A stretch of 64,000 nt of DNA from a virus (lineage: Duplodnaviria > Caudoviricetes): the IMG/VR virus record IMGVR_UViG_2561511197_000003, positions 2,976 to 66,975 of that record. The stretch is one strand, 5' to 3'. The position numbers and the translations under genes are program-made. The notes beneath the pieces were generated by a model that saw only the letters and a list, made by a program, of their open reading frames with translations, did not search any database and was not told where the DNA came from. How positions within the stretch are numbered: position 1 is the first letter of the stretch; each line of letters begins with the position of its first letter. This document shows positions 1 through 43,600 of the stretch, one piece after another.

Positions 1-282
1 ATTGATGTAGTGATTATTGTAGGGGCATACCCAACCGAACTTGATGCGGTGCAGCTGCTCGCTCCACCATTTCCAGGCGGAGTCGCCGCGCGCTTTGGGA
101 CTATCGGGAATCCGATCAGCCAGCACGGGCCGGTACAGATCCTGTACGCTGGGGCCTCTGGGGTCAGTCGACGTCGTCTCTACGACCGGAGCAGGCGCGG
201 CTACCGGCGGGGGATCGGTGGCCATCACCGACAGGGCAACGCCCAGCACGCCCGCCTTGATGAGTTTACCGACCTTATCCAT
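1..282 (-). CDS. Probable terminase large subunit, N-terminal part (runs off the left edge; absent from the ORF track)
   Basis: ATG at 282 is open to base 1: MDKVGKLIKAG...SAWKWWSEQLHRIKFGWVCPYNNHYIN. This resembles the W-x-E-x-x-R-x-x-x-G N-terminal motif of crAss-like TerL. It lies at the end of the head operon. Confidence 0.6.
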   Translation of the reverse strand, partial: MDKVGKLIKAGVLGVALSVMATDPPPVAAPAPVVETTSTDPRGPSVQDLYRPVLADRIPDSPKARGDSAWKWWSEQLHRIKFGWVCPYNNHYIN

Positions 283-302
283 TGTGTAGAGGAGAAAAAC
301 GA

Positions 303-638
303 TTAAAAAAGCCACTGAACCAGCCGGTACAGCCAGCTGTGGCGCGGAGGATAGCAGGCCGCGCGCGGTCTGCAGCGCGGTGGTGATTGGGCCGAACCGG
401 CGCTGCACCCCTTATCAGCCCAGAAGAGTTGTGGTGTTGGACAGCCGCAGCACATACAACTGCCGTTGGTGTAGCAGCTCCAGGCCTGCCGCTTGCGGGT
501 CTCGACGCTTGCCTTCAGATTCCGACCCAGCAGGAACGGTGCGTACTGAAAAAGCCAGTAGCGCACCGTTCCCTGCCAGAACCAGATGGCGTCGGCCGGC
601 TTGGCCCGCAGGTGCCTGATGGCCTCCCGCAAACCCAT
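303..638 (-). CDS. Small Cys-rich phage protein (CxxxGxCxxCGC)
   Basis: Motif CYTNGSCMCCGCP...KGC; start overlaps the stop of the upstream gene. Confidence 0.7.
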   Translation of the reverse strand: MGLREAIRHLRAKPADAIWFWQGTVRYWLFQYAPFLLGRNLKASVETRKRQAWSCYTNGSCMCCGCPTPQLFWADKGCSAGSAQSPPRCRPRAACYPPRHSWLYRLVQWLF

Positions 639-1735
639 TAGCTCAGCGCCAAGGCCGTACCCGTTCCGATCACATCCCCGGCCGTAACGACAGCGGGTTT
701 GGCTGAAGCTGTGCGCGTGACGGTGTACAGCGACCGGCCATTGCGGTAGGCGACCCGTTGAATCGTCACCGCACTATAATCCGTCTTAGCCGTCGCCATG
801 GCCGCCGCATCGCCCCCATCGGCGCGGTCGACGCTGAAGGGGTACACCAGAAAATCCTGGCAGGTCGGCGTTGCGCCCGTGGTGAACAGGTGCTTTTGTG
901 CCTTGAGGATGGTCACTGCGGCATCGTGAGCGGCCGTCGCGTTGGCATTATCGGCAAACAGAGCGACGCACCGGCGCTGGATAGGCACCATCCGCTGCGT
1001 TGTCTGCCCAAACGACGAGGTCATCTGGCCCAGCAATTCAGCAGCCTGATACTCCATGTAGTCCAGCTCAATGGCCCGCAGACACGTACCCGCGGGCACC
1101 GCCTCACCCGGAAACAGGCTGGCGATGAGCGCCGGGGTCAGCCCCACATTTTTACCGGGAACGACGATGCTTGCCGCCGACAGGCCATCGGTACCTTTCA
1201 TGTGGAAGAAATCGCCCGGTTTCAGGACTTCGATCTCCACGTATGAGGTACCGTTTTCCGTCACGGCCGTAGCGTTGCCGTACAACCCGTAGTACAGGTT
1301 GAACTGGCGCGCGGCGTCGGCGGCTTTCTGAGCAGCCGTCTCAATACGCCCCTCGTCGTAGCCCACAAAAATCGGCGTTTCCTCGTCAAGTTCTTTGGGC
1401 GCCACGCAGGTCGATACGGGCCGCAGATGCAGCATTACCGGCTGAGTTTGGGGAGCGATGACGGCGTATCGTACCTTTTGTTTGGTAGCCGCGTTGCAGC
1501 AGCGCAGGCCTACGCCTTTCCCACCCGGCAGGATATCGATCAGCGGTACCCCCAGTTCGGGGCCATCGTTGTCAGGTACGTTGGACAGCGCCCCCTTAAA
1601 CCGCAACAGGCCGTTCTCTTCGAGCGGCGTTACGTTGGTGGCCCCGGAATAATAAACAACCTGATCAAATTCGGGCTGGCAATCCGGCGTGCGAAGAATA
1701 GGCTCGTAAGCGGGAAAAACGCTTGAAATGTTCAT
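638..1735 (-). CDS. Putative auxiliary capsid/structural protein
   Basis: 365-aa ORF in the capsid operon. Function inferred from position only. Confidence 0.5.
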   Translation of the reverse strand: MNISSVFPAYEPILRTPDCQPEFDQVVYYSGATNVTPLEENGLLRFKGALSNVPDNDGPELGVPLIDILPGGKGVGLRCCNAATKQKVRYAVIAPQTQPVMLHLRPVSTCVAPKELDEETPIFVGYDEGRIETAAQKAADAARQFNLYYGLYGNATAVTENGTSYVEIEVLKPGDFFHMKGTDGLSAASIVVPGKNVGLTPALIASLFPGEAVPAGTCLRAIELDYMEYQAAELLGQMTSSFGQTTQRMVPIQRRCVALFADNANATAAHDAAVTILKAQKHLFTTGATPTCQDFLVYPFSVDRADGGDAAAMATAKTDYSAVTIQRVAYRNGRSLYTVTRTASAKPAVVTAGDVIGTGTALALS

Positions 1736-1748
1736 GCGACAGAGTTGG

Positions 1749-2396
1749 TTAAAGGTTTAGTTCACGCTGGGGTATCTCACTCCCAGTTAATGCGGCGTAA
1801 GCGGACGGGCCCGAAGGCCGAAGGTGCCGGGCTAGTACCCGATCCAGAATTTCACTAACCGCTTTATCTCCTTCGATCAACACCTGGGCATTGGTCGCAG
1901 TTGGTGGCGGAGGCAGCAAGGCAGGTGGCACCTGCCAGTAGCTGAGCATGGCGATGATCGGCGTCGTCTTACTCAATAGCGTCAGTTTTGTGCCTTCCTG
2001 CTGGTATTTAGGGTACCAGTCATCGGCACGGCGGGCTGGGTTACCTTGATCGACGGCCAGCGTATCGTCTTTGGCAGGCGCACACGGCCGATCGGGCAAC
2101 GGCCTGGTCAGCCCACCGACGTTGTACGAAAACGTCAGATTCAGCGCGCGAATCGGTCCCACAGCCGGGGTAATCGTGGCCAGATCAATGACCGTACCCG
2201 GATGCTGGATGAGCTTACGCACCACGAAGGCCGCCATCAGCTCCCGGATATAGTCGGTCTCTTTTTCGAGGGCCTTCAGTTTTTGCCACGCCGCTCGCTC
2301 AGTGGTGTAATACGCCGCAAATCGGTTCGGCGCCAAATAGGGCACATCCGATTTGCGCAGTTTTTCCCACAGAGCGAATACGTCGTAATTGGTCAT
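1749..2396 (-). CDS. Putative head-tail ring/adaptor protein
   Basis: 215 aa; size and position after the MCP match crAss-like ring proteins. Confidence 0.45.
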   Translation of the reverse strand: MTNYDVFALWEKLRKSDVPYLAPNRFAAYYTTERAAWQKLKALEKETDYIRELMAAFVVRKLIQHPGTVIDLATITPAVGPIRALNLTFSYNVGGLTRPLPDRPCAPAKDDTLAVDQGNPARRADDWYPKYQQEGTKLTLLSKTTPIIAMLSYWQVPPALLPPPPTATNAQVLIEGDKAVSEILDRVLARHLRPSGPSAYAALTGSEIPQRELNL

Positions 2397-2406
2397 TACC
2401 GTAGGG

Positions 2407-3426
2407 TTAGTAATTCACCAGGTCATCCATCATGGTCACCTGTTGCGGGTTTTCGGCAAAAAACGTATCGACTTCCTCGCGCGACATAAACGGCTTAGGT
2501 ACGTCGGCAATCGTCCAGACGCCGTCCGTTTCGACAACCAGCCCCTTTTGAATGTAGGCGTTGACCTTGTTGCTGATGGCCTTGTCGACAGTCGGAGCGG
2601 TAAGCTCCTCGGACACTTCCTGAACCGCCTCCGCATTTTTTACCCCGACGGTGGTAGCCAGTTGCAGCAGTTCCGACTCTTCCAGTTTTAGCTCGGTTGG
2701 TCGTTTGGCGAGCCGCGGCCGACCCGCTTGCTCTTTGATGGTTTGCTGCACATAATGGCGGGCGATTGAGTTGGTCGACAACTCGTAGATAGCCCGGGCG
2801 TAGGTTTCGCCCAGCACCTTTCCGTCGCGGCGCATGTACACCTCCCCGTCCAGATACAGGATGCCCGTTTCCAGGCCCGCGTCCAGCAGCACCTGCGTTT
2901 CGTAATCGTTATCCTCCCACAGCCAGGCACCCTCCACGGAGCGGAACGCATCGACACCCTCGCGGGCTTTGGCTTTCAGGGCAATAAACAGTGATGGTGC
3001 CGGAATGCCTGCCGTTGACCCCAGGCCCACGCGGCGGTAGAGGTTGCCCAGCGTTTCGGTATCCTGCCGGTGGTCCGACAGGTAGGTAGCCAGCTCCTGT
3101 TCCAGATCGAATTGCGCCATGGCTTTCCGGCTTTCTTCCTCGGGATCATGCAGCTGCACGCGTTCGGCGATCGTGGGGTCAAACTTGACGATGACCTTCA
3201 GCACGTCCCAGTTGTGCTTATCGTACTTGTCTTTCAGATTGAAGAGCCGGTGCGATTGAATGATCATCGGCGCGGGTTTACCCAGCCGATCGAGAAAGGT
3301 GAAGGTGTACGGTTGGCCTTTGATACTGTACTCGTGTTCGGCCTCGAGGTATTCCTCGGTTTCCGGACCCGGATCGCCTTCGCGAATGGCGTTGTTGCGA
3401 ACCAGTAAAGCTTTAGCGAACTCCAT
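2407..3426 (-). CDS. Phage protein following the major capsid gene
   Basis: Long ORF with likely ATG at 3426 (MEFAKA), immediately downstream of the MCP. Confidence 0.6.
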   Translation of the reverse strand: MEFAKALLVRNNAIREGDPGPETEEYLEAEHEYSIKGQPYTFTFLDRLGKPAPMIIQSHRLFNLKDKYDKHNWDVLKVIVKFDPTIAERVQLHDPEEESRKAMAQFDLEQELATYLSDHRQDTETLGNLYRRVGLGSTAGIPAPSLFIALKAKAREGVDAFRSVEGAWLWEDNDYETQVLLDAGLETGILYLDGEVYMRRDGKVLGETYARAIYELSTNSIARHYVQQTIKEQAGRPRLAKRPTELKLEESELLQLATTVGVKNAEAVQEVSEELTAPTVDKAISNKVNAYIQKGLVVETDGVWTIADVPKPFMSREEVDTFFAENPQQVTMMDDLVNY

Positions 3427-3483
3427 AAGAGGAACAGAATTAAGTCGGGTGAGCCAGTGACCCACCCGACAGTAGAATTAAGG

Positions 3484-5085
3484 TTATTTCAAATCCAGAA
3501 TCATGTTCTTGTCGTACGAGGCTTTCACCGTCAGTTGCGACAAAAAGCAGATTTCATCCCCGTCGACCATCGAATCAACCCGGTTACCGTTGTTAGCCAG
3601 TGTCCGTTTGACCTGCTCGTCCGACACGTTCAGTAGCTGCTCAGGCGTCCAGCTACCGCGACCGACGTGGCCTTTGGTGACGGCCGGGTTGAGCAACCGA
3701 CGGATATCGTCTTTCTCCTTGTGGTAAATCCGGACCGTGGGCTTCTTGGCGCCCGTGCGCGGATCGGTGGTCGATACCGGCATGAAGTAAATCCGGTTCG
3801 AGCGCGAGGGGTACGACACGCCGTTGTAGCCAATGCGGTCGCTCATACTCCAGCTATCCTGGGGCTGCGAAATATCGTAGATGAGAATTTTGCCATCCGG
3901 CGTTTCCATCGTATCAATGTCGTAGCCGACACTGCCGCCGTTGAGCTTGCCGTCGTTCACGCCCACGTGAATCTGATAATTCAGCTTCTTGGCCAGCGCG
4001 AAATAGGTGTCTTTGAGCCAGTCGCGGCCGAGGCCCTGACAGACGGCCAGCAGCGTTACTTTTTTGCCCGCAATCGCGCGCATCGATTTAAGCATCCACT
4101 CGAGCTTGGCCACCGAGGCCTCCTGCGAGGAACGCAGGTAGTGCTCGTAGCGTTTGGGCGCCAGATCCCATTGGTAATACACCCCGGCAAAAACCGGGCG
4201 CTCGGGGTAGCGGCTGTCGGCCATCGTGTTGGCGATGCGCCGATCTTTGGCCGTAAAGTTGGGTTTCCAGTGCATGACGGCATCGCTCAGTTCCTGGCAG
4301 GCCTGCCGGAATACCTGAACGGGAATATCCGACGACACGTCGATGCGTTTGCCCTGGGCATCTTCCAGGATTGCCGCCATGGCATTATCGGCTAACGCGC
4401 TACCCGTCGACACGGAGGCCGAGCGAATGATGGTCGTGACGTTGATTTCGTCGAACGATACCTCGCCGTTACCCACCATCGGCAGACCACCCAGGGAGCC
4501 CTGGCCCATCGTGTTGGCCATCTGGTAGCGGATCGGCGCATCCATCGACAGCAGCGAGCCGTCAGCCGTTTCACCCGGGATGCCTACTAACTGAGCCGTG
4601 TACTCGACTTCCTCCGTGCTGAGCGAGCGTTTGCCGACCGCCAGAATAAGCGTCTTCTCGTCGCGGAGCATAAAGATCGAGCCCGGCTCACCCATATCCC
4701 GGTTGGCCCGGAACGTAAAGTTGGTCTGGGCCGAATTGACGCCACCGGGGTTGGGCGCCACCAGCACGGCCGGCACGCGGCTGTTGTCGGTCACCCGGCC
4801 CGGAATCCGCTTTTCGACGAACGTGCGGGTTACGTGGTACTCGGTGCTGATGCCAGCCCGTTCGACGTTGATCAGCTGTGCCTGGCCGTCTTCGTTGTTG
4901 TCGGCCGAGATAAAGCCTTTGAAGTCCGAGAACATGTTCAGCGGCGAGCTGGGCACCGCCTCGCGCAGAAACATATTGATCGATTCACGCTGGCCCACGT
5001 AGGAGTTGATGTGCTCCATATCCAGCGCTTTGCGGCGGGGAACGCGCGTGGTCCGTACTACTTTAAGCGGATTATTGACTGCCAT
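3484..5085 (-). CDS. Major capsid protein (crAss-like)
   Basis: 533 aa with strong GC3 bias. Follows an acidic scaffold-like gene; size and context fit a crAss-like MCP. Confidence 0.7.
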   Translation of the reverse strand: MAVNNPLKVVRTTRVPRRKALDMEHINSYVGQRESINMFLREAVPSSPLNMFSDFKGFISADNNEDGQAQLINVERAGISTEYHVTRTFVEKRIPGRVTDNSRVPAVLVAPNPGGVNSAQTNFTFRANRDMGEPGSIFMLRDEKTLILAVGKRSLSTEEVEYTAQLVGIPGETADGSLLSMDAPIRYQMANTMGQGSLGGLPMVGNGEVSFDEINVTTIIRSASVSTGSALADNAMAAILEDAQGKRIDVSSDIPVQVFRQACQELSDAVMHWKPNFTAKDRRIANTMADSRYPERPVFAGVYYQWDLAPKRYEHYLRSSQEASVAKLEWMLKSMRAIAGKKVTLLAVCQGLGRDWLKDTYFALAKKLNYQIHVGVNDGKLNGGSVGYDIDTMETPDGKILIYDISQPQDSWSMSDRIGYNGVSYPSRSNRIYFMPVSTTDPRTGAKKPTVRIYHKEKDDIRRLLNPAVTKGHVGRGSWTPEQLLNVSDEQVKRTLANNGNRVDSMVDGDEICFLSQLTVKASYDKNMILDLK

Positions 5086-5157
5086 GAGAGGTAGTTGGAT
5101 AAAGGATTGGGTTTAGAAATAGTGGCGTCGGGCGATCCCCGCCGTGGCCGAGGAATC

Positions 5158-6129
5158 TTAGTTGAGCTGGCTGGCCAACCGTCGGTTAGCCCCTTCTTTG
5201 GCGCCGCGTTCGTAGTGGGCTGCCAGCCAGCGCGCGCGCAGCTGGGGATTGAGCACCAGCGCCATCAACCCCTGTTCTTCCGGGGTTAGCGCGTCGTAAT
5301 TGGTAAGCTTGGTCCGCAGCCCGTCCGAGTTGATAAAATCAATCAGGGCGGTGCGGTCGTCGTCGCTCAGCGGCACACCGCCGGGATTGAGCGTCTTTAT
5401 CGTGTTGGCCGTTTGCTGCCGGGCGGCAGCTTGCCGGTTGGCCACGTTGGCCCCGTGCTCCCAGGCCGCCTCCTGCTGCTGCTCCAGCCATTGGTTCTTT
5501 TGCTGCCGCAGCTGATCGACGCACTGCTGGCCTTTGGCGGTCAGGGCGCCTTCCTGGATGTAGGTGAGCATGTAGCGATCCCGATCTTCATCGTTGTCGC
5601 GCAGAATGGGCATTTGCCGGATCAGGTCTTGCTCCAGCAGGTATTGATTGTCGAGGAACCGCGCATGATCCCCGGCTTCGCCAGGCTCATAGGTGCGGCT
5701 CAGGCGCGCCTGCAGCTCAGCGTACTCAGGCACCTGCTGAATGAAGCGGCGGGCTTCTTCGAGCATCGTGAGGTTGCCCAGCACGTTTTCGGGCGTAGGC
5801 TCGATGTCGGCGGGAATGTCTTCGCCGAAGGCCTCTTTGTACTTCGCTCCCCAGTCGATGGTTACCGGGGCCACCTCCGTCGACGCATCGGCTTTCAGAT
5901 ACTCCGGAATCGAGGCATCAACAGGTGCCTTCTGGCCAGGCGCAAGCGTCTGATCCAGCGGCGGCGTGTTGGTGGTAATCTGACCCAATGCCTGCTTTTC
6001 GGTGTCATTGAGCCCGGCTTGCTCAGGCCCGCTTTCGGGTGCCTCAGCTAAGCCTTCTTCGGCTAGAATACTGTTCAGATCGAACCCGGAGGTGACGTTG
6101 AGTTGGGGACCAGAAGAGGTGTTTTCCAT
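5158..6129 (-). CDS. Putative capsid scaffolding protein
   Basis: Acidic low-complexity N-terminus, helical Q/E-rich body, directly upstream of the MCP. Confidence 0.6.
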   Translation of the reverse strand: MENTSSGPQLNVTSGFDLNSILAEEGLAEAPESGPEQAGLNDTEKQALGQITTNTPPLDQTLAPGQKAPVDASIPEYLKADASTEVAPVTIDWGAKYKEAFGEDIPADIEPTPENVLGNLTMLEEARRFIQQVPEYAELQARLSRTYEPGEAGDHARFLDNQYLLEQDLIRQMPILRDNDEDRDRYMLTYIQEGALTAKGQQCVDQLRQQKNQWLEQQQEAAWEHGANVANRQAAARQQTANTIKTLNPGGVPLSDDDRTALIDFINSDGLRTKLTNYDALTPEEQGLMALVLNPQLRARWLAAHYERGAKEGANRRLASQLN

Positions 6130-6290
6130 AAGAGGCAGCCGATGACGGCGATTGGTTGGCGCACGTGCGCTTTAGCTGCTTCAAAATTCCTCACTCTATA
6201 AGTACAATTGTAATGTTTCATGTTGTCTTTTCGGCGTCGTCTGTGTAGTTTTCCATCGTCATCGTGTATTTCCCTTCCTTTTTCCTACCT

Positions 6291-6959
6291 ATGAACACGG
6301 CTTTAGGGATGCCAACGGTCCCGTCGTTTGAACTTCTGTCCGATGTAAGCCAGTACAACAACTGGCAGGACGCGTTTTCAGCCCTGTATCGGCAAATCGG
6401 GTACCAGCATCAACAACTTAATCTGGTACACACGCGCATGGATGAGGCCGAGGGCCTGTTAGAATCCATCCTCTTCACCTATGGCCAGCACCAGCTCGAC
6501 CGGCAAACGCTGGTGGGTGCCCACGTGCTGGCCGTAGCGGCCTATTTCGACGTGGCGCGCGACGATTTACTGGGCCTGACGGGTCGCGGCGGGCTGGGCA
6601 TGGCGCGCACGACCCTATCAGGCGAGTACGATCAGCGTATCCGTCGCGCGCAGGACTGGCTGTTGATGCTGCTGGTACGGGCATTTCCGGTGGTGCGCCG
6701 GGCCGACTTCAAGGGGTTTCTGCGCTTTGCCTCCGAGCGCCGCTACAATCACTGCCGGGTGGCGGGCCAGGAGATTCGCAACAACCTCAAACACCCGGAT
6801 CGCCGCGACTGGGTGGCGCTCTGGCAACGTACCCTGGCCATCGCCAAACGCGGCGACGTGGATCTGCGGGAGTTCATGGCCCTGACCGAGCGCGAAATCG
6901 GCCAGTTCGTCACTCAGCTAGCGGAAACCGAGCAGCGGCAGGCAATCGACGCAAATTAA
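6291..6959 (+). CDS. Protein with DnaA C-terminal (HTH)-like segment
   Basis: VAAYFDVARDDLLG...RRAQDWLLMLL resembles DnaA domain IV. Divergent from the capsid operon. Confidence 0.5.
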   Translation: MNTALGMPTVPSFELLSDVSQYNNWQDAFSALYRQIGYQHQQLNLVHTRMDEAEGLLESILFTYGQHQLDRQTLVGAHVLAVAAYFDVARDDLLGLTGRGGLGMARTTLSGEYDQRIRRAQDWLLMLLVRAFPVVRRADFKGFLRFASERRYNHCRVAGQEIRNNLKHPDRRDWVALWQRTLAIAKRGDVDLREFMALTEREIGQFVTQLAETEQRQAIDAN

Positions 6960-6978
6960 CTAGCCTTACCAACCGCCT

Positions 6979-7004
6979 GCCCGGTGCGCAACCGGGCTTT
7001 TTTT
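6979..7004 (+). terminator. Intrinsic terminator
   Basis: GCCCGGT-GCGCA-ACCGGGC followed by a T run. Confidence 0.75.
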
Positions 7005-12942: not shown

Positions 12943-12974
12943 AAAACAGCCTGTCTCCAGAGGAAACAGGCTGT
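12943..12974 (-). terminator. Terminator at the convergence of the middle genes and the tRNA cluster
   Basis: ACAGCCTGT...ACAGGCTGT hairpin with TTTTGT on the - strand. Confidence 0.7.
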
Positions 12975-13072
12975 ACATACCCACCGTAACTTATACTTAA
13001 TCGTAATCTGTCTGGTAGCAGCCAGACCAGCCCCTAAACCGACCTAACTTCTGACGCTGGCCACCACCAGAC

Positions 13073-13149
13073 TGGGACAAAAGAGCGGATTCGAACCGCT
13101 GACCTCCGGAAATGGCAATCCGGTATTCTACCACTGAACTACAATCGTC
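13073..13149 (-). tRNA. Atypical tRNA-Gly(GCC)-like gene with 8-nt anticodon loop and encoded CCA
   Basis: D arm GTTC-AGTGGTA-GAAT; anticodon arm CCGGA-TTGCCATT-TCCGG; T arm AGCGG-TTCGAAT-CCGCT. Acceptor stem has two U-U mismatches. Confidence 0.65.
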
Positions 13150-13223
13150 ATCCACCTCCCGTTTCGCGGAGTCGTCTCGCGCTTCGTTCGCCCATCGACT
13201 GGGCTTCTCGTTCTAAAAATGTG

Positions 13224-13310
13224 CGGGCGATGAAGGGCTCGAACCTCCGACCTCACGTTTGGGGTGGCTGACTTCCCAAACATGCGCTCTACCATCTGAG
13301 CTAAACTCCC
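13224..13310 (-). tRNA. tRNA-like gene (GGG anticodon) with a 14-nt insertion at position 37/38
   Basis: D arm GCTC-AGATGGTA-GAGC and T arm GGAGG-TTCGAGC-CCTTC are canonical. The anticodon arm is 31 nt instead of 17. Confidence 0.65.
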
Positions 13311-13585
13311 AGTTTGCCAGCCCACCAGCAGAGCTATCCCTACCGGGTCTGGCTCCAGAAGCTACAGGCTCTGCGAACAGATCTGCACTACTGCCGGGCG
13401 TCTGGCTCGCCCCCCTTTCGGGCACGGGTTATCGTTTTCGCATAAACAGTAGGGGCCAGAGTCCAGCCCCGTGTTCGAGTATGCTTTATACAAAAATGAA
13501 AAGGCTAGGTTTGGCTGTCGAACAAGTGTGTCTTTGCCTTTTCCTCGTGCTTCAGTTTCCGCTCCGGATCGACAACCAAACTTTG

Positions 13586-13658
13586 TAGCGGGAGCGTGAC
13601 TCGAACACGCGACCTCTGGGTTATGAGCCCAGCGAGCTACCGACTGCTCCATCCCGCC
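13586..13658 (-). tRNA. tRNA-Met(CAT), initiator-like
   Basis: Complete cloverleaf GGCGGGA...TCCCGCT-A with anticodon arm CTGGG-CTCATAA-CCCAG (three G-C pairs) and A11-U24. It has G1-U72 rather than C1xA72. Confidence 0.92.
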
Positions 13659-13666
13659 ATACCGTC

Positions 13667-13708
13667 AAAAATGTGGCTAACGTATAAGGGTATGCGTTAG
13701 CCACATTT
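13667..13708. terminator. Long hairpin / possible terminator upstream of the tRNA cluster
   Basis: AAATGTGGCTAACGTATA...TATGCGTTAGCCACATTT. Confidence 0.55.
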
Positions 13709-32885: not shown

Positions 32886-33086
32886 ATGGGACGAGAGGTA
32901 AGAAAGGTTGCCGCTGACTGGCAGCACCCAACCGATGAAAACGGCAGACTATCGCCTGAGCAGCTTGAAAAACTGAGGAATCAGACAATGAATAATAATA
33001 TGTCTGCTATGTTCTGGTCTGGCTTTTCGATAGGAATGTCTGTAGCGGTTATAGTGTTTTTACTTCTCATGCTGTTGCGTAAATGA
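32886..33086 (+). CDS. Small protein with C-terminal TM helix
   Basis: MGREVRKVAADWQHP followed by a hydrophobic tail. Confidence 0.55.
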   Translation: MGREVRKVAADWQHPTDENGRLSPEQLEKLRNQTMNNNMSAMFWSGFSIGMSVAVIVFLLLMLLRK

Positions 33087-33107
33087 TGAAGTTTTTCTTC
33101 AAGAATA

Positions 33108-33488
33108 ATGAACGAGCCACCGATTCAACCTAACGAAACTGAGCGTGTCGTGACAAGCTGGTACGTTCGCCTCACGATCACGAAAGGGCTAATTAACTGG
33201 CATTATCAGTACTGGTTTCGCAACGAAGCAGGTGAGTGGATCGACTACCCCGTTCGTGATCGGGGACGTGGTGACTGGTACATCGACCGGGCCGTTGATA
33301 AGCTGCTCACCTTGCCCGAACCTGAGCAGCAGACGCTAACCATGCAACAGGTAGGGCCACTGGCCTCAGCGATCCGGCAGCGGTATCAACGGTCAGGCGT
33401 GTACCCTAACAGCGGGGTCGGTGGGGGCAAAACACTCAAAGGGGTGATGGCATGGGCCGAGGGGGTTTTTAAGAAATACGGCCCTTGA
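33108..33488 (+). CDS. Hypothetical protein
   Basis: Last + strand ORF of the early region. Confidence 0.65.
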   Translation: MNEPPIQPNETERVVTSWYVRLTITKGLINWHYQYWFRNEAGEWIDYPVRDRGRGDWYIDRAVDKLLTLPEPEQQTLTMQQVGPLASAIRQRYQRSGVYPNSGVGGGKTLKGVMAWAEGVFKKYGP

Positions 33489-33597
33489 TTGTACTGCCGA
33501 CTAGACGAGTGTAGACAAAAAAGGTACGTTTGCCCCGCCCAAAACGGGCCTTCTGAATGCATGGGGCCACTTTGTACAGATTTAAGGTACGTTTACC

Positions 33598-34005
33598 TCA
33601 CTGCCTGACGAGGGTGAACTGGGTGGTGGTTTCCTTGCCGGTGGGTACGTAGGTGCAGTAGCCACTGCCCAGCGCGCGGCAGACGAGCGTGTTGCCAAAC
33701 GTCGAGGGCAGTACGTAATTGGTGCACTCCCGGTCTTTCTGTATCGGCCCATACTGATAGACTACGCGCAACACGCCGTTCTCAACCCGGTAGGTGTAGT
33801 AATTCGGTGAGCCTGGGCCAGTGACCAACAGCGTTCCATCGGACTTGAACTCGTAGATCGAATGCCAGTTCGGATTGGTATACGCCTCCATGTATTCCCA
33901 TTTACCAACCAGACTCGTGGCACTCACCGACGTGTCGGCGGGGGCGGGATCGCTGCCTTTACAGGCCAGCACCAGCGTCAGCACCAGTACATACAGGTGT
34001 CTCAT
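33598..34005 (-). CDS. Lipoprotein, lipocalin-like beta barrel
   Basis: Signal peptide II ...LVLAC; LVGKW; YEFKSDG. Confidence 0.75.
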   Translation of the reverse strand: MRHLYVLVLTLVLACKGSDPAPADTSVSATSLVGKWEYMEAYTNPNWHSIYEFKSDGTLLVTGPGSPNYYTYRVENGVLRVVYQYGPIQKDRECTNYVLPSTFGNTLVCRALGSGYCTYVPTGKETTTQFTLVRQ

Positions 34006-34457
34006 GCTACTGGGTCCGGATTGGTCCAGAGCGGCTTGATGATACCAATAATCTCCAGATACAGTTTAAACTCCTCTCCTGTCATAGTAGCAATCGGCTT
34101 GGTCATCAAGACGGTTTTTACTTCCGCAACTCGTTTCTCATAATGCAGGCGATAGAAACGTTTAGCGACGTCAAGCATCTGCGCACGCTTATCCTTATCT
34201 AGAAGAGTTTCATAAAACTTTGGGAAGGCTTTTTGCTCCGTAAGCTCTATCCTTAGATCATCTGTTTTCAGATCTCTAAACAGCGCTGTGTATTGGGTAT
34301 TTGTTACATCTGAAATAAGCAACCCTATTTTAAAGGCCATAGTCGCTTCGAACTGACTAACATGGCCTCGACTTAAGCTGTCTAACCGCTGCTCGTCGGA
34401 AAGGAGGGTGATAATCTGTTCTAGATCGGGCAGGTTTTGAGGAGAAGTAACTTGCAT
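34002..34457 (-). CDS. Hypothetical low-GC protein
   Basis: ATGA-coupled to the lipoprotein gene; lies after the late terminator. Confidence 0.65.
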   Translation of the reverse strand: MQVTSPQNLPDLEQIITLLSDEQRLDSLSRGHVSQFEATMAFKIGLLISDVTNTQYTALFRDLKTDDLRIELTEQKAFPKFYETLLDKDKRAQMLDVAKRFYRLHYEKRVAEVKTVLMTKPIATMTGEEFKLYLEIIGIIKPLWTNPDPVA

Positions 34458-34592
34458 GTGGTATAGAGAGTATTTGACACCAAATCAGCACGAAGTGTAA
34501 CTAATTTCCAAGCAAGTCAAACAGGCCACCCCGAAACAGCATAATTGTCATTTTACGCAGTCGCTTCTTTTACATTTCATTTATTTCGATAA

Positions 34593-34632
34593 ACGAAAAG
34601 CCCCGTTCCTGCATTGGAACGGGGCTTTTCGT
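34593..34632. terminator. Strong (bidirectional) terminator after the giant gene
   Basis: ACGAAAAGCCCCGTTCC...GGAACGGGGCTTTTCGT. Confidence 0.85.
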
Positions 34633-34656
34633 GTTTGTAGCTGTCGCTACTTCTTT

Positions 34657-37600
34657 TTAATCGTTTGTCAGCTGGCCACGGACCACGCGGGTCACTGTGC
34701 TAGGCAGGCCTACCCACTTCGAGACAAAATCAGTCGATTTTCGCACGAACGTATCCCCCGCCTGAGCGGCTTTCTTCTCATCCTCTTCGGTCATGTACCG
34801 GCCTGCTGCCAGCACCGCATCGACGCCCTGCTGCATGTTCGACAGACTGGGCACCTCGTACAGCTGCTCATTGCCACCAACACCATCGACCTTATTGATG
34901 GCGTACTCGACGAACAACGTACCCAGCCCGGGGAACGTACCTGACACGTTACGCAGCGAGTCGAACATCACGCGTTCGGTCAGCTTATCGGCTTCGGGCG
35001 GTTCCCCACCCGACAGCATGGCCATGATCACCGACGTACCCGCCGACACGGCGCCGACGTACACGGCGTTGGCCAGCACTCCGTAGCCCAGCGTCTGCAG
35101 GAGTTTGGCGCGCGCGGCTTTGGCCTCCGGCGTTCCCGGTGTGGCCTTCGTGTAGCCGATCATCGCCCGAATCACCAGCCCCGCAATTTTCTGCTGCTGG
35201 CTGCTGTACATGCCCAGCATTCGGGTAAAGAACTGCTCGGAGAGTTGCATCGGGGTACGTTCGGCCAGCGAATCCGTGTTATAGGTTTCGCTTACCACCC
35301 GCTCGGTCAGGTGGGCCACCCGATCCCACCACGCATCGCTGTTCTGCTGTAGCCCTTCGGCCGAGGCCTGCAGCTGCGCCGCCTGCACGTAATACAGGAT
35401 GGGCGCCCGGTCAGCCCGGCGCATGGCCGACATAAGGCGTTCCCCCGCGAAACTGTCGTACTTCCTGAGCAGCTTCTGCGCGTTGCTGAGCGTCGCGCTG
35501 TTGAGGCCCAAATCGTCAAAACTGACGTCACCGACGTGCTGCTGATTGGAGTCGAGTAGCCGGTTGATTACCGCGCCGAAGCGCCGTAGCTGCTTGGCCT
35601 TGGCCGCTTCGTCCATGCCCTGACCCAGCAACGCCTCGATGTAGGGCCGCTCGACTGTATCGCTCTCACTAATCAGCCCACCGTGAAGCCCCTGATCGGA
35701 GCCGTCGGCGCGTACCGACGCCCCTACACCCGCATCGCGGTATGCCCCGGCGGTTAGCTTGGCCAGCAGGCCCAGCGCCTGCGGATCGCGCAAATGCTGA
35801 TCCTCAATAATGCCCTGCCCCATCGCCGAGGCGGCCGTGCCCAGCTGTTTGGCAGGCAGGCCCAGGTTGAGCGAGAAAATCGAATTCGTGAACCGGCGCA
35901 TACCCCGCTCGACGCTCGTCAGGCCGGGGTTGTCCTGCCGAACCCGCATCATGCGCTCCCGGTAGCCACGCAGTACTTCGTATTCGCGCGTCAGGTAGCC
36001 CACCAGTCGCGCTTTCTGCGGCCCCTGGTACTTGTTTTCGATGGCGTCGCGCAGGTGCATGACGTTTTCCGACAACCGACCGTATTCCAGCAGATCAGCG
36101 ACCTCCTGTTCGTAGCGGATCATCGTTTGCAGCGGGTTGCCCAGCACGATGCCCTTCGCTTCACGCGACCGCGCAATCAACCGGCCCGACTTATCGTAGA
36201 GCTTCATGCGGCCCTGCGCCTCAGCGCGCGCGTTGGCATCCCCGCCCGTCACCCGAATGGGGTAATAGAACGTCTGGCGGGGCCGGTTTGCCGCCCGTCT
36301 GGCCCGGTTCTCGTCGCGCCGGTCGCGGGCTTCCGCCAGCCACTCCTGCGCGCCGGGCGCCAACGCCGGGTCGATGCCGGCACCCGCTTCGGCAGGCTCG
36401 ATGAGTCGAGGTGATTTACCACCGGTACGTTCGCCTACCCGCTCGAAGGGTTCGCCCGGTTTGAGCGCATTGTTTTCTTCTTCGAGCAGATCCGCTACCT
36501 CGTTGACGTTGAAAAACGAAATCAGCGCCTCGTAGCCTTCCACCTCCCCGGTTTTGGCGTCGTTACCCTCCACAAAGCGCGACAGCAGGCGATTGTATTC
36601 CGCCCGGGGTAACATCAACGTGTCGAGCCGATCGCGCGCGGCATCGTAATACTGGCCACCGTGGTCGAGTTTTTTCGACAACGTACCATCGGCATCGCGC
36701 TCGTAGAGTTCATTGGGACGCGGCTCAGCGTCGAACACGTGAGTTATGCCACCCGTGGGTGACGACCCCTGCTGGGTTTCAGCCAACGCAACCGCTTCCA
36801 TCACCGTCAGGAGCGGCACCTGCTTTTCGACCAGCACCACCTCACCCGTATTGGGATTGAAGTCATACGACTGCACCCCGATCAGCTGCTCCTCGAAGGG
36901 AGCCAGTAGCCGGGCGGCCGTAGAAAGCCGGTCCTGCAGGTACGTTTTCGCCGTACCCGCGCGACGTGATCCTTCGAGCTGCGGTTCATGGATCAGGCGT
37001 TTGATGCTGCCCTTCGTGTCGTCGATCAGATCGGCGAACGTAATCAGGTTGGTCCACGACTTGAGCCAGTCTGAGACAAAGTTGGTCAGCCGACCAACGT
37101 ACCCAGTATCATCACTGCGCTGGCCAAAGCCTGTACTCACTGCATTGGCCAGCGTTGCCTGATCAAGCGTCAGCACCTGCCCGTTCGCCAGATGGTAATG
37201 CGTCTGCGGATGGGTATAGGTGAGCTTTTGGGGTGAGGTCAACTCAAAGCCCGTCTGCTCGGCGATCTGTTTGATGTACGACTTATCGGCGTCGGTGTAG
37301 TTGACGGGGGACATTTCCCATAAATCGCGCGAAACAGCCGGTTGCTTCAGCCCCTGCACGGTGAGTTGCGTATTGGTCACCGGCGGGTTGCGCAGCTGCT
37401 GCTCGGCCACCGATAGCAGGTTGGCCAGCGTCGTGGGTTCGGCCCCCAGCACACTGTTGGCAGACGGGGCGGTCGGCTCAAGGGTCGAGGGGGCCGGATC
37501 AGGCGCCAACTGGAATTGGGGTACGTTGCTGGGGGGCGCAGGCTGAGCGCGATTACCCGGCCCTTCCATCAACCCCAACACCTGCCCGGCCCAACGCGCC

Positions 37601-40600
37601 AGCTTCGCATCGGCTAGTTTCTCATTCGAGGTCCAGCCGATCGCTTTTCCAATTTTGGCAAACAGTTCGTCGAGCCACAGCCGGAACGCCGATTTACGGC
37701 CCGACACTTTAAACTGTTCGCCCTTGTCGCCGATCGCCGTTTCGAGCGCTTCGATTTCCAGTTCGGGAGTGGACAGCGTTTTGTAATAGCTGTCGGTACG
37801 CAACCGGGCGAAGTAGCCTGAATCGCGCACCAGCGCCACGCCTTTGGTGTACAGATCGGGAAACTTGGTTCGCGCCGCTTCGGCCCACAGGCCGCCGAAC
37901 TCGTGAAAGACGGAATTCAGGTTTGCCTCGGGCGAGAAATACACCTTGCCCTGCCAGCGGAAGGCGAGCGGTCGACGAGTGGCAAGGCGAGCCCTGTCTG
38001 CTGGCTGCAGTCGGCTCAGGCTTTCCTGCAAGGCCTGCCCGTACGCGGCCGGATCGGTGATGGCGTCCACGCCGAAGGCCTGCGCCAGTCGCGCGACAGC
38101 CTGCCCAATGGGGGCAGTTGACCGGGCAGGTACGTTCCCCTGCTCGGGAGCCAGTTGGAAAAACGGGCTATCCGGCTCGGCAAACGGGTTGGAGGTATCG
38201 CCCAGCGAGTCCATCATGCTAGCCAGCCCGGCATCTTCCTGCGTGGCCGACGTACCTGGCGCGGTCAGGCCCGTAACCTGCTGGTAAAACTGCGCGGCTT
38301 TTTCGGCGGTCTGGAACTGGAAACCGGGGATGGCTCCTGATCCCTGAAACCGCGAGTAGTAGCCGCCCAGCGACTTGGCCTTATCCAGCGCGGCGTTGTA
38401 CTGCTCAGTACTGAGCCGCCCGTTAATGGGCACCACGAACGTGTCCCGTTGATTTTTGGCGTGAAACCCTTTGACGGGTTCTTTCAACGGTGCGTTTTCC
38501 GCTGTAACAGAGGAAGCCGCAGCGGTCTGCGGTGCAACAACCGGGACGGCAGCAGCAGCCTGAGCTGCTGGCTGGGCGACTGGCTGCGCTGGCAGTACCG
38601 ACGAGCGCGTTGATAAATCCACCCGCCCAGCATTTACCCGCTGTACGTCGGCTGAGGTGATCGTTGGCCGTTCAGGCACCTCGATCGTTTCCAACTCATC
38701 AAACAGTTCATTGATGTCTTTGACGTCGCGCAGATCAATTTCTTCCACCGACCCCGGATTGGCATCAGGCTGCAATTTATCAAGCACCAGCACCTGCGTG
38801 TTGACTGCCGTACCCGCCCGCCCGAACGTACTGCCGGGCAACAATATGCGCGCTGTCAAATGAACACTACTGGTAAGACGCCCCAGTTTTGGGGGCGTAT
38901 TCACTTCCTCCAACCACTTGTCAAACTTAGTATTGAAGGCGCCGACTGGTACCAGTGCCACCACCCGGCTACCGACGACCGAGTGTTGCTCAATCGCCTT
39001 TTTGACGTGCTCCAGTGCCGTTTTACCGGCCTGCCCATACGGCGGGTTCATGACCGTGACCTGGTACTTGTTCACCGGGTTATGATCCTCGTAAGCCTCG
39101 TTGAGCTTACGGCCATCGGTCACCAGCGATACTTTACTGAACAGTTCCGACGACGGTTCAATGACCGTTAGACTGGCATCTTCCGGCACCCAGCGGGCAA
39201 TGGCACCGTGGCCAGCCGAAGGCTCGTTTACGCGGTCGCCTGTTTTGATGTTACCCCACTCGACCATCTTCATGCCCAGCGGTTCAGGCGTGGCAAAGTA
39301 ATCGACGCCTTCGTAGGCTTTGGTTTTGGCGGTACGTTTGAGTTGTGCGAAGTAGTAGGTTTTTGCCTGATCCCACGGCGAAATCGGCTTGGTGAAACTG
39401 CGGTCAAATGCCTTACCGCCCGTACCATCCTTCTCAGAGGGTACGTACTCGGTGGTTGCCTCGAAGCCTTCAATGAACGCCTGCTTCAACCCACGGGCCA
39501 TTTCACCCATGCCCAAATTCTCAGCGGTACCGGCCCGGCCAGCAATCGTATCAGCAAAAGCCCGACGCTCCCAGTTGGTGCCCGTATTGAAATACACGAA
39601 CATACTGTTGGAGTCGGGATGCTGGCCAGTCCGGTAAATGCGCCCTTCCTGTTGAATCGAGCGGGTCGGTTGCGTGGGCAGGCCTAGGTTCACCAGCACG
39701 CGCGGATGCCTACCCGTCGTATCGTGGCCCGACCAACCCGCGTTGGCCGCCGCATTGACCAGAATGATGTTGGCCTCGGGCTTGGTGTCGTCGTTGAAGT
39801 TTTTGACGGTGGCGGTTTTAGCCGTTTTGCTCATGCCTCCCTTTAGGCGAGCCGCCTGCGGGAAGGCTTCGCCCAACGTGTCAAGGGGTGCCCCGTAATC
39901 AGCGGCGTTGATCGCGTAGAGGTCCGGTCGACGTTCGTAGAACTCCCGAATCAGCGTGCGAATCGAAATCGATTTTTGGCTACCATACGGGCCAGTCATT
40001 ACGTTGCCTTCGGGCAAATCGCCGTTTTCATTTTCGAAATGGAACGGCGCAAAGCCGCCCCCTTCCGTGTAATCGTAGAACACGACGACTTTCTTACCCT
40101 GATCCAGCCACTGTTGGATGTACGGTATGGCTTCCTTGGCCTTAATGGCTTCCAGTAACCGCTGGCGCTGAAGGTAATTGAACCGCTTTTCCAGCAGATC
40201 GATTAGCCCCGTATACCGCTTGTTATCGCCTTCCCGAACGAAGGCCAAACCCTCGTCGATCAACGTACCCACAGCTGACGGGGTGAGCGCAAACAAACGC
40301 TGATAGTCTGAATCAATATCCAGTACGCGGGCGCTGGCCACGCCTTCTTTTTGAAGCCAACCGTTGAAATTGCGCTCCATCAGCGACACGTCGACCGACA
40401 CATCGGGCTGCGTCAGGCGGTTATACCGCATCCGGTAGCCGAAATGCTGCACCATGAAGGCCTCATAGCCCGAGGGTACGTTGTAGGCGGTACTGTCGGA
40501 TTTTCCGTAGCTGAACAAATAGCCATTGGCCCACTGGATTGTTTCGCGGTAGGCAAAGGGCGTGGCCGATAGAAACACCGCGCGCGGACGGACGGCGCCC

Positions 40601-43600
40601 TGATTTTCTTTAATCAGGGCTTCATTCGCCTCCAGGTAGTTGTCCCACTCCCGTTCTTTCAGCGATCGTTCCTCGGAGAGTGCATCCAGTTCGGGTTTTA
40701 ACAGTTCCCGTTGATAAGCCGTATCCCGGCTTCTGAACTGGTCGTCAATCTCTCTGATGCGGGCCCGAATTTCGGAGAGCCGGGCAAACAACTCTTCGTG
40801 CTCCACCATCGTCCGATTCCAGGCCGAATCAGGGTGATAGGTATGCACCTGAAACGCTTTTAGGGCACCGGTCACGTCGGCCGACGACGACTGCATGAGG
40901 TTGTGCGCTTCATCGGCCAGCAGCAGATCAAACCTACGGGTAGCCAGCGCGTTATTACCGGCAAAATTGGCGTAGGTCGTTACATTGATCCCCGACCCGG
41001 CATCTTTCATGTCGTCGAGCGCGCGAATGGTCAGCCCCAGCGCAGGTGCTGACATGACCCACTCGTTCATTACGCTGACATTGGGCACGATCACCAGTGC
41101 GCTGGTTTTACCCTGCTTGGCAAAGCGTTTGATGATGCCCAGCCCCAAGAAGGTCTTGCCGGTGCCGGTGCCGTTGGTAAACAGCACTCCGTACCCGTCG
41201 GGCTTGGACAATCGCGCTTCGGCAAACTGCACATCTTCGCGCTGGCCATCCATCAGGTAGGGCAACGTGGCGTCAATGTTTGCGCGGTTGCCAACGACAA
41301 CCTCAATGGATTCGGCCTGCTGCTGAAGGGCTAGCTTTTCTGCACGAGTAAGTGAACGGCCTTCCTGAGCAGCTGCGATAGCTCGCTGCTCTCCGAGTCG
41401 GTCAGGCTGAATTCCTGCGTCGCCAAGCGCAGGGCTTCCGCTACGGTCGTCACTTCGGGCAGTGCTGTCCGCAGGGAATAAGCTTCCGAACTCGTTATAA
41501 ATTGGGTTAGCGCGTGATGTTCTACCAGTAGCGGCAGGATCTGCTGATACGCGCTGATCACCCGGGCGCTGTGTCCCTGACTCGTCAACCAGTCGGATTC
41601 CTTCGCCAACGCCTGGCTCAAGGCTTCCGGCGTCGGCTGGTTGAACATCGTTAGTGCCCACTGGCTGAGTAGTGGTTGTTCGTGGGCTATCTGGTTCCAC
41701 ACGGTTAGCGGTACCTGCGTCATTGGGTTGTGTATTTACATCATCAAGGGTAACGGCCCGCACCGTGCGACCGTCATCCATTTTATCAAACGTATCGTCG
41801 TCGACGGTGTTCTGGTAGGCACCGTAAACAGATTTCAGCGCCGCCAAGTCGTTTTCGGTCACCGGGCCCTGCAGTTTCACAAAGTCCCGAACCACCGCCG
41901 TAAACTTGTGTACACCCTGCTGAAATTTCACCGACAGGTATTCGGCACCGAGGGCCAGAAGCTCGGGGTCGGCAAACGGATTGCTCGACAGATTGCCCCG
42001 CATCTGACGCAGCTTTTCCTTTAACCGGGCGGCCAGATCAGCCTCACGCTGGGCCAGTTCGTCGAGTTTATTGACGGGGGCTGGCGTGTCGGTTTGAGCC
42101 GGAAGTGAGTCAGTAGTCGCGTTTTGTGGGACAGAATTGCCATTTACTGCGACAGTTGACCCGTTTTCTGCAACAGATGACCCAAACAGCGCGGTTTGTT
42201 GCGTGCTGGCGGCAACGGCCTGCTCGATCGCGCGCAGCTTATTGGCCTGGGCGGTTTTCTGCCGCTCGACGAGTGCTGCGCGCTGCTGTTTGGCCCGATC
42301 AATCGCCTGACGGGCGGCAGCTTCCGCCTCCAGTCCGGTGGTGTTACCAGCAAACAGATCAGATTGGGTCGCAGCTTTGGGATCGGCCGCAAACAGATCA
42401 CCCGTCTGCAGCCGGTTGCGGTTTTCGCGTTCAAGCCGGGCAATGGTGCGGTCGGCTGCATCGATCTCGCGTTGCAGGTTCGCCAGTTCAATGTCGAAGG
42501 GAGCCGTGGCCTCGGCCGTGCGCGGATCAACTACCGCCTCAGCCGCAATGGCTTCGTCAATTTCTTGGAGCAACGTGGCCGCCTGTAACCCGATGTCGGC
42601 GAGTTGTTCCTGCTGATCAGCCGGGCTTTCGTTCCTCGATTCCTGCGCACTAAGGGGCAGATACGAGGCAGTAGCGATCCGGCGATTACCCGCTTGGTCT
42701 GTGTATGCATACGAAAAGCCAGGAAGGTTCTTAGCTGAATACGCCGTAGCTACTTTACTACCCGGACTATCTTCCTTAATCTCATAGAAACCGGCCGCTT
42801 CCCAATTACCATCAACCAGTATTTCGGAAACAATACCAACGACACGCCCAGTCTTGCGTGTTTTTACACTACTGACAACGTACCGCTGTTCCTCATCAAC
42901 TTGAAATAGATCGCCTTTCTGAACCGTGGCTAGCAACCAATTAGCAATAGTTGGCCCATCATTGGTTGCAACGACGTCCTCATAACTGCTTTGTGTTGTT
43001 ACTGTCGGCTGATCACTTGGCGCGACCGAGTTAGTTTCGTTAACTAGGGTGTCTGTTCCGGCGCTTGGTTGTCCGACGGCTTCGGCAGCATTTTCGAGGT
43101 CCGCGACCGCAGACTCAAGAGCGACGAGAGTTTGTCCGACGGTGGTACCGCCCCCGGCCCCTGACTCAGTCGGGCTGTTAGTAAGGCCTCCGTCAGCTGC
43201 TGGCGCGGGCTTTTGTTGTTGGATGGCTTCATAGATGGGAAGAACACCGGCATGGCCAACGGCCAGATCGGATAAGAAACGGTTAAGTAAAACTAAACGT
43301 TCGGGCGTGTAACCCATTAATCCTGAGTTCACGAATGAGTAAACGGCAGAAAACTCATCCAGCAACGGGGCTAGATCGTAGCCCGCCTGCGAGTCCCAGT
43401 AACCCAGCGTGCGCATTTCTTTGAGCAGCGCCTCGACTTCCTCATCGGAATAGCCGTTGACCAGGTCGAGTACGTCGCGGGTTTCGGCGGCCAGCAGATC
43501 GGGGTTTTCCTGCCATTGGGCCGCTACCTCGGGGTCGAGTTCAGCCAGCACGTCGGCCTGCATCTGGGCCGCCGCCTCATCGGCCGCGCCTTCGTCGGCA

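Follow-up and report, generated by a model that had tools for sequence, protein, structure and literature searches.

A tRNA-shaped gene with a self-complementary 14-nt insert in its anticodon loop, possibly a non-decoding relic on a low-GC bacterial island

We analyzed an 87-nt tRNA-shaped gene (13224–13310, minus strand) in a 64,000-nt stretch of DNA from the IMG/VR virus record IMGVR_UViG_2561511197_000003. The whole stretch, hereafter the window, corresponds to C1:4024961-4088960 of G000, a bacterial genome of 6.94 Mb in two contigs (completeness, 99.99%). The anticodon loop of the gene contains an insert that pairs with the loop itself and has no second copy in the genome, which lacks any known splicing system for it. 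We tentatively read the gene as an unspliced, non-decoding accessory tRNA, a disabled relic that persists on an island rather than a working adaptor, and we place this reading slightly short of an even chance. A preliminary description of the same DNA had also proposed an unspliced tRNA-like RNA, which is the leading reading here too, as neither a splicing endonuclease nor a bulge-helix-bulge was found.

That the odd tRNA is a genuine tRNA-shaped gene with an insert in the anticodon loop is solid. ARAGORN and Rfam both placed it at 13223/13224–13310 on the minus strand, in agreement with direct reading. Rfam RF00005 scored 43.7 bits (gathering score 29; E = 5.5e-6 for the window) over model positions 1–71, and its alignment showed 16 residues in the anticodon loop versus 2 in the model as well as two non-standard acceptor pairs. 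Direct reading gives GGGAGUU-UA-GCUC-AGAUGGUA-GAGC-G-CAUGU-[UUGGGAAGUCAGCCACCCCAA]-ACGUG-AGGUC-GGAGG-UUCGAGC-CCUUC-AUCGCCC-G. The discriminator G is followed by CAC, and no CCA is encoded, as in most tRNA genes of the genome. The D arm, the T arm and the variable loop AGGUC are intact, and the tertiary nucleotides U8, A14, G18 G19, A21, U54 U55 C56 and A58 are present as usual. Meanwhile, only five of the seven acceptor pairs form; pair 1-72 is G-C, and the two mismatches that had been described are A4.G69 and U6.U67. Between the strands of the anticodon stem lie 21 nt instead of the canonical 7-nt loop. The covariance score is that of an RF00005 member, whereas the gene lacks a 7-nt loop presenting an anticodon on a 5-bp stem, a 7-bp acceptor stem with all pairs formed and a discriminator that agrees with the isotype.

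In minimum-free-energy folds, the anticodon arm (13254–13284, minus strand) was extended to a 10-bp helix with an 11-nt loop. Positions 13284–13275 pair with 13263–13254, and AAGUCAGCCAC at 13274–13264 forms the loop. The helix (C27-G57 to G36-C48 in raw numbering) is continuous and has no bulges; therefore, the odd tRNA has no bulge-helix-bulge. The predicted fold energies were -29.2 kcal/mol for the whole RNA and -13.8 kcal/mol for the arm alone. The first of the five extension pairs uses the resident A38, and the remaining four are supplied by the insert. Removal of 13260–13273 restored CAUGU-UUGGGAA-ACGUG. Every element of the observation originally made on this gene, i.e., a 14-nt insertion in a tRNA-like gene that pairs with the loop and lengthens the arm to 10 bp, was thereby confirmed by ARAGORN, Rfam, direct reading and the folding program.

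The insert can be excised in two ways. In the first, taken from direct reading, AGUCAGCCACCCCA (13260–13273, minus strand) follows position 37, and its excision yields UUGGGAA with the anticodon GGG (Pro). In the second, called by ARAGORN in intron mode, GGGAAGUCAGCCAC (13264–13277, minus strand) lies between positions 33 and 34, and its excision yields UUCCCAA with the anticodon CCC (Gly). This ambiguity arises because of the self-complementarity UUUGGG...CCCAAA, and a position of 37/38 with a GGG anticodon is one of two equally clean readings. The preliminary description gave that reading, which is valid, but overlooked the Gly-CCC alternative; the intron-mode run that it had proposed did call the insert, although between 33 and 34 and not at 37/38. 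The default ARAGORN call (Pro-GGG with a long variable arm) was rejected as clearly worse than the extended hairpin, since it requires two anticodon-stem mismatches.

Bacterial tRNA-Pro is recognized by G35 G36, G37, A73 and C1-G72, and tRNA-Gly by C35 C36, U73, G1-C72, C2-G71 and G3-C70. The host genes agree, with C1-G72 and A73 in tRNA-Pro and C2-G71 and U73 in tRNA-Gly. The odd tRNA instead carries G1-C72, G2-C71, G73 and, when read as Pro, A37; G35 G36 appear only after excision at 37/38, and C35 C36 only after excision at 33/34. As had been stated, typical Pro identity elements are lacking, whether judged by the E. coli-type rules or by the host tRNA-Pro genes. Even a spliced product would probably be a poor substrate for Pro or Gly synthetase, and the host already encodes both tRNA-Pro(GGG) and tRNA-Gly(CCC). 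Over 38 aligned columns, the 5' half through UUUGGGA shared 89.5% identity with the tRNA-Pro annotated in Erwinia phage Hena1; that tRNA has G37 and an anticodon read as UGG from the alignment. Because of this resemblance, the origin of the 5' half leans towards the Pro type. Among the host tRNAs there was no clear parent for either half (best local scores, 21/31 and 19/35). An automatic annotation as tRNA-Pro or tRNA-Gly can thus be misplaced on an RNA that is probably unable to decode.

The splicing endonuclease of the EndA/Sen family (PF01974) had no match in the whole genome, and the same search was positive in 4 archaea among 14 control genomes. In place of a bulge-helix-bulge, with two 3-nt bulges flanking a 4-bp helix, the fold showed a continuous 10 bp; both absences had been anticipated in the preliminary description. 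Between 12000 and 15000, Rfam at E<=1 found the three tRNAs alone; therefore, no intron or ribozyme family, group I introns included, is present there. A group I intron was also rejected on its own terms, as 14 nt are too short for the catalytic core (P3–P9, at least 200 nt) and the insert ends in C or A, not G. Bacterial tRNA introns are generally considered to be of the self-splicing (group I) kind only. Full-text searches, as far as the texts were accessible, returned no paper on short protein-spliced introns in bacterial tRNAs. At the DNA level, the 17-nt insert core matched only itself in the genome at <=2 mismatches, the 23-nt inner arm had one match at <=4 mismatches, and the 11-nt loop had three exact matches in 6.9 Mb.

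In the reading that we favor, the odd tRNA is a genuine tRNA-derived gene with a Pro-type 5' half, carried as cargo of a mobile island. Because the acceptor, T and D core is intact, the RNA would be transcribed with the neighboring tRNAs and have both its ends processed as those of a tRNA are; its anatomy indicates that, if made, it is able to adopt the tRNA L-shape and to serve as a target of end-processing enzymes. Pairing between insert and loop turns the 5-bp stem and 7-nt loop into the 10-bp helix and 11-nt loop. The insert would probably not be spliced out, and an unspliced RNA would therefore present no anticodon. The features that the host Pro or Gly synthetase would expect (discriminator, 1-72 and 2-71) are missing, and the RNA is probably uncharged. 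In favor of a relic, the Trp-like tRNA of the same cluster is also aberrant (8-nt loop, two U.U mismatches), and the genome has a surplus of accessory tRNAs, several of them malformed. In the accessory tRNA operon of Anabaena, according to the accessible part of PMC8421152, 3 of 26 tRNAs were undetected and their genes were considered pseudogenes. If the insert is kept, the gene would represent a new way of making a tRNA a non-decoding RNA on a mobile element.

Several observations weigh against this reading. All four insert-supplied pairs are Watson-Crick pairs, for which the chance is 1/256 with a random insert; with G.U allowed, the chance of four pairs was 0.063 (200,000 random inserts simulated). 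An accidental origin of the self-complementarity is unlikely, though not overwhelmingly so. Comparative evidence came from Logan contigs of public runs (X1, X2, X3 and X6). The X1 contig (1265 nt) covers 13048–13433 at approximately 94% identity, with 22 other letters, of which 19 are listed, and 5 gap letters. It keeps the insert at its exact length, as the gap letters fall at 13153 and 13219, outside the gene. The three changes listed within the odd tRNA are at 13295 (D-loop A16>G), 13272 (hairpin-loop G39>U) and 13282 (U29>C), the last of which strengthens the stem by turning U29.G55 into C29-G55. All three are compatible with the structure, with a probability of 0.088 under random substitution, given that 116 of the 261 possible single substitutions are tolerated. 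In addition, the spacer 13149–13223 changed at 10 of 75 positions versus 6 of 163 in the present gene and the Trp-like tRNA taken together (Fisher p = 0.010); upon pooling both spacers (13/198), the difference vanished (p = 0.25). Taken together, the retained insert, the compatible changes, the spacer contrast and the Watson-Crick pairs hint that the hairpin form may be maintained, for a function rather than as a relic. The search for homologs with compensatory changes that had been suggested earlier thus produced one relative with the insert and a U.G to C-G change, but no other homolog in the collections searched.

Because X1 retains the insert, one change strengthens the stem and the extension is of Watson-Crick type, two further readings stay alive, of a mimic and of an intron. 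The first is that the gene is a selected tRNA mimic, whose RNA is made, end-processed and kept unspliced, and whose L-shape with an elongated, closed anticodon arm serves the island. One possibility is that this RNA occupies or titrates an enzyme or sensor that binds tRNA through the elbow and the acceptor end, not the anticodon. We consider this unlikely, although the comparative data above would suit it, as would the intact tRNA core with its tertiary nucleotides. Other families of the same order reuse tRNA scaffolds for non-decoding RNAs, with a conserved anticodon-region module whose helices covary, and a YrlA-like tRNA mimic is also present in the genome. However, only one relative supports the mimic, with weak statistics, and the gene itself is not constant. 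The X3 contig had the slot 13220–13315 replaced by 138 other letters between conserved flanks, and the X2 contig stopped matching at 13305; therefore, the odd tRNA is a variable cassette and not a fixed part of the cluster, which suggests cassette-like exchange of the gene. Furthermore, no partner protein was identified: defense-system models (PADLOC) matched 0 of 6 island proteins, and proteins near the tRNA cluster matched no RNA-processing or RNA-binding family. The 45–60-nt module seen elsewhere in the order is absent from the genome (0 motif matches, no RING protein). The earlier suggestion of a decoy for anticodon nucleases or uncharged-tRNA sensors was without support, given the PADLOC result and an anticodon that is buried in the helix.

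Still less probable, in our judgment, is a true short intron, of which the 14 nt would be removed by a pathway other than the archaeal/eukaryal one, e.g., by an endoribonuclease and the RtcB ligase, to leave a 73-nt tRNA that reads Pro (GGG) or Gly (CCC) codons. Either excision gives a perfect 7-nt loop with U33 and A37/A38, and the loop-region change in X1 (G39>U) would be cut out with the insert whichever excision is taken. The genome encodes RtcB at C1:4195437-4196534 (277.9 bits). However, this gene lies approximately 157 kb from the tRNA cluster, behind a YrlA-like RNA and in the usual layout of a repair operon, in which a Y-RNA precedes RtcB. The YrlA-like match (L069:4311-4402 = C1:4193311-4193402; 37.7 bits, below the cut-off of 69) overlaps a partial tRNA match (33.8 bits) and is upstream of two open reading frames (ORFs), the second of which is RtcB; the locus resembles known Y-RNA/RtcB repair operons. 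The absence of a bulge-helix-bulge or bulge-helix-loop, of a PF01974 homolog and of any precedent in the literature searched also argues against splicing, as does the product, which would keep the two acceptor mismatches and the wrong discriminator, 1-72 and 2-71 pairs for Pro or Gly. Read as Pro, the product would carry A37 where the Hena1 tRNA-Pro has G37, and the tRNA produced would duplicate one that the host already owns.

A second accessory tRNA of the genome, with a 20-nt insert readable at 37/38, also favors an intron. It is located at C1:4931866-4931769 (L043:2270-2367, minus strand) in an array of eight tRNAs (4929868–4933623), encodes CCA and scored 43.9 bits with Rfam. Between the strands of its anticodon stem lie 27 nt, readable as CUCAUG, 20 nt and A, i.e., as a CAU anticodon with a 20-nt insert at 37/38; the insert folds weakly. 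No relative of this tRNA was found in 60 related genomes. In ARAGORN intron mode, the whole genome yielded many implausible long-intron calls, and we used only the two short-insert calls with Rfam support; a Val(aac) i(35,10) call at C1:4377197-4377300 was dropped for lack of it. In addition, tRNA-like arrays of other families carry inserts of 45–60 nt, which in several units directly follow a YU-NNN-R loop start. It is improbable, to about the same degree as the intron itself, that the inserts at or near 37/38 (14 nt, 20 nt and the 45–60-nt modules) form a class rather than products of decay, removed independently of EndA by an endonuclease and RtcB or kept as protein-binding modules. The processing route of a new kind that was proposed earlier would be compatible with RtcB and the second insert tRNA, but the Pro assignment on which it was based is ambiguous, as Gly-CCC is equally possible. 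If such a short insert, placed where introns canonically lie in tRNAs, were processed in a bacterium, an unknown route of tRNA splicing would be implied.

Finally, we find it very doubtful that the insert is a DNA-level scar without meaning at the RNA level, left by a mobile hairpin or palindromic element or by recombination between two tRNA halves: insert and loop do form a near-perfect inverted repeat (UUUGGG...CCCAAA), and GGGAGUU and AUCGCCC mismatch at two places as expected of halves with different histories, but the insert is unique, for which reason a multi-copy hairpin or palindromic insertion element was rejected, no host tRNA is clearly parental to either half, and a scar would account for the origin and not the present function, which leaves it compatible with a relic.

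Searches for further relatives of the odd tRNA returned little. Exact and degenerate patterns of the odd and Trp-like tRNAs found 0 stretches in viral_contigs, genome_contigs and metagenome_contigs. By blastn, the odd tRNA matched 3 of 50,697 phage records, each only over the 5' 36–39 nt, and neither of the two tRNAs matched any of 72,556 plasmids. Whole-genome blastn against 61 relatives, 401 family-level genomes and 401 order-level genomes, which are overlapping samples that each include G000 itself, gave short generic tRNA pieces only; the single order-level match was a tRNA-His. Proteins were also used as anchors. None of the 400 other family genomes searched yielded the DUF5662 protein, which led to six viral loci, five without a tRNA and one with an ordinary tRNA-Arg and tRNA-Lys. 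The RNase H-like protein led to 13 viral loci, where tRNAs, all ordinary, occurred in L055 alone, and the phrog_5845 protein led to no loci.

The odd tRNA is the middle one of three minus-strand tRNA genes that ARAGORN and Rfam found inside 600 nt. The first is an initiator-type tRNA-Met (13585–13658, minus strand; Rfam 68.4 bits), in which three G-C pairs close the anticodon stem and G1.U72 is present; the host copy at G000:C1:6451315-6451395 shares 89% identity with it. The last is the Trp-like tRNA (13073–13148, minus strand; Rfam 52.9 bits), which has an encoded CCA, discriminator C and the acceptor pairs G3.U70, U5.U68 and U6.U67. Its 8-nt anticodon loop, UUGCCAUU, was given the anticodon 'gcca' by ARAGORN and possibly holds the four-base anticodon GCCA; the gene could be a frameshift-suppressor-type or a non-decoding tRNA. 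For X2, X3 and X6 the differences are those among a partial listing, and hence no statistics were drawn from them. No insertion or deletion was listed for the Trp-like tRNA in the four public runs; therefore, its 8-nt loop appears conserved. In all four, U70>C turned G3.U70 into G3-C70; in X2, U67>A and U68>A restored two pairs, in X6, U24>C turned G10.U24 into G-C, and further listed changes fell at T-loop positions 59 and 60.

Approximately 100 nt downstream of the last tRNA, a consensus scan alone indicated a strong terminator-like hairpin (12946–12974, minus strand) of 13 pairs followed by UUUGUUU, and a sigma-70 promoter scan gave 0 sites. The 9-mer CACAUUUUU occurs four times in the window versus 0.59 expected. 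Two copies lie inside the cluster on the minus strand, one directly 3' of the odd tRNA (13215–13223) and one that ends 8 nt upstream of the tRNA-Met (13667–13675); the 9-mer may be a promoter or processing signal.

The cluster belongs to a low-GC island (approximately 7000–34500) with 47.7–55.5% G+C in 2-kb windows versus 56.5% for the chromosome. Its borders stay approximate because the flanks 1–7000 and 33000–41000 had no DNA match in five congeners. Island proteins were matched to an RNase H-like/Rv2179c-like exonuclease, a sigma-70-family factor, DUF3307, DUF5662, a PAPS-reductase-like protein, a sliding clamp, PRTRC system protein E and a ThiF-family protein, among others; NCBIfam matched 0 of 5 island proteins. 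Two island genes have paralogs elsewhere on the chromosome, including beside a tRNA array at approximately 4.99–5.01 Mb. Very long ORFs (4187, 521, 1326 and 1348 aa; 34657–56807, minus strand) directly adjoin the island. The genome has 67 Rfam tRNA matches versus 28–41 in the 11 congeners searched, and the surplus is located in the island cluster and in the arrays C1:4929868-4933623 and C1:4989606-4992437. Therefore, the cluster tRNAs and the arrays at 4.93 and 4.99 Mb are accessory; many array tRNAs encode CCA, unlike most of the housekeeping set. Several accessory tRNAs of the genome are malformed, including the one with the 20-nt insert (C1:4931769-4931866) and one with a 6-nt anticodon loop (C1:4647803-4647875). 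The latter, on the minus strand, was given a two-base 'anticodon' (at) by ARAGORN and scored 54.1 bits with Rfam.

The search for the second insert tRNA led to two other families of the same order with arrays of tRNA-like genes. In the first loci, these genes were 113–125 nt long with 44–58 extra nt in the anticodon region; eight were called by Rfam or ARAGORN, and a ninth appeared with wider flanks. The arrays comprise 1–7 genes of approximately 113–139 nt (L065:9022-10084, minus strand; L066:9332-9990, plus strand; and, in L070–L099, upstream of a long ORF). They share an insert motif, AUUAYY, a hairpin, RGUYAA, 5–9 nt and UUACUYC, in a module of 45–60 nt, and are directly upstream, on the same strand, of a gene for a protein of approximately 750 aa. 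Against NCBIfam NF041916 (the MXAN_6230/SCO0854 RING-domain family), this protein scored 137 bits, far under the cut-off of 600, and it had a weak Pfam Prok-RING_4 match. Its AlphaFold model (pLDDT 75) showed a C-terminal TerD-like domain; in Foldseek, we took the TerD matches (probability 1.00) and a weak RING match as credible and rows at approximately 0.05–0.3 as noise. Of 301 genomes searched in the order, 53 yielded the RING/TerD protein, two of them only as distant matches; for the window's own family, the count was 0 of 21 genomes. In 24 of the 30 fetched loci there were 49 motif copies, all upstream on the same strand; 37 of the 49 lay inside ARAGORN tRNA calls with 'introns', and three further loci had such calls without the strict motif. 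When 29 units were aligned (A4), the tRNA arms were recovered together with an 8-bp helix inside the insert, of which seven pairs showed double-sided changes in 2–12 sequences, and in several units the insert began right after the YU-NNN-R loop start.

Rfam 15 has no family for these RNAs, PF01974 was absent from five genomes that carry the arrays, and the literature search returned no paper on them. They look like an undescribed RNA-protein system, apparently widespread and uncatalogued. Judged by sequence, their inserts are unrelated to that of the window. They show that, in this order, a tRNA scaffold with extra RNA at the intron site is a recurrent form, one that is clearly selected in the RING/TerD case. 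For the question of tRNA inserts, this family is a better-founded target than the odd tRNA.

The odd tRNA can be compared with four other forms. Like archaeal and eukaryal pre-tRNA introns at 37/38, its insert is short, lies in the anticodon loop, after position 37 in one reading, and pairs with the anticodon as in anticodon-intron helices. Unlike them, it is bacterial, has neither a bulge-helix-bulge nor a bulge-helix-loop and no endonuclease homolog, and its site can be read as either 33/34 or 37/38. Group I introns, according in part to bioRxiv 10.1101/2020.01.27.920355, interrupt the anticodon loops of cyanobacterial tRNA-Leu and tRNA-fMet and of alpha- and beta-proteobacterial tRNA-Arg and tRNA-Ile. 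The anticodon loop of the odd tRNA, also a bacterial gene, is interrupted as well, but the insert has 14 nt and no Rfam intron match and, in the 33/34 reading, follows U and ends in C. Like the accessory tRNA genes and pseudogenes of phages, integrative elements and arrays (accessible parts of PMC8421152 and PMC4758250), the odd tRNA is mobile low-GC cargo, clustered with other tRNAs and redundant with those of the host, and its neighbors are aberrant. No comparable insert is described in those parts, and the odd tRNA differs from accessory tRNA pseudogenes in that its defect is a clean, self-complementary 14-nt insert kept in a 94%-identical relative, not scattered decay. As for the RING/TerD-associated RNAs, neither their motif nor the approximately 750-aa protein was found in the genome with the query used. 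They differ from the odd tRNA in their shared motif, their 8-bp covarying helix and the specific protein gene adjacent to them, and resemble it in that the acceptor, D and T arms are kept and the extra RNA is carried in the anticodon region.

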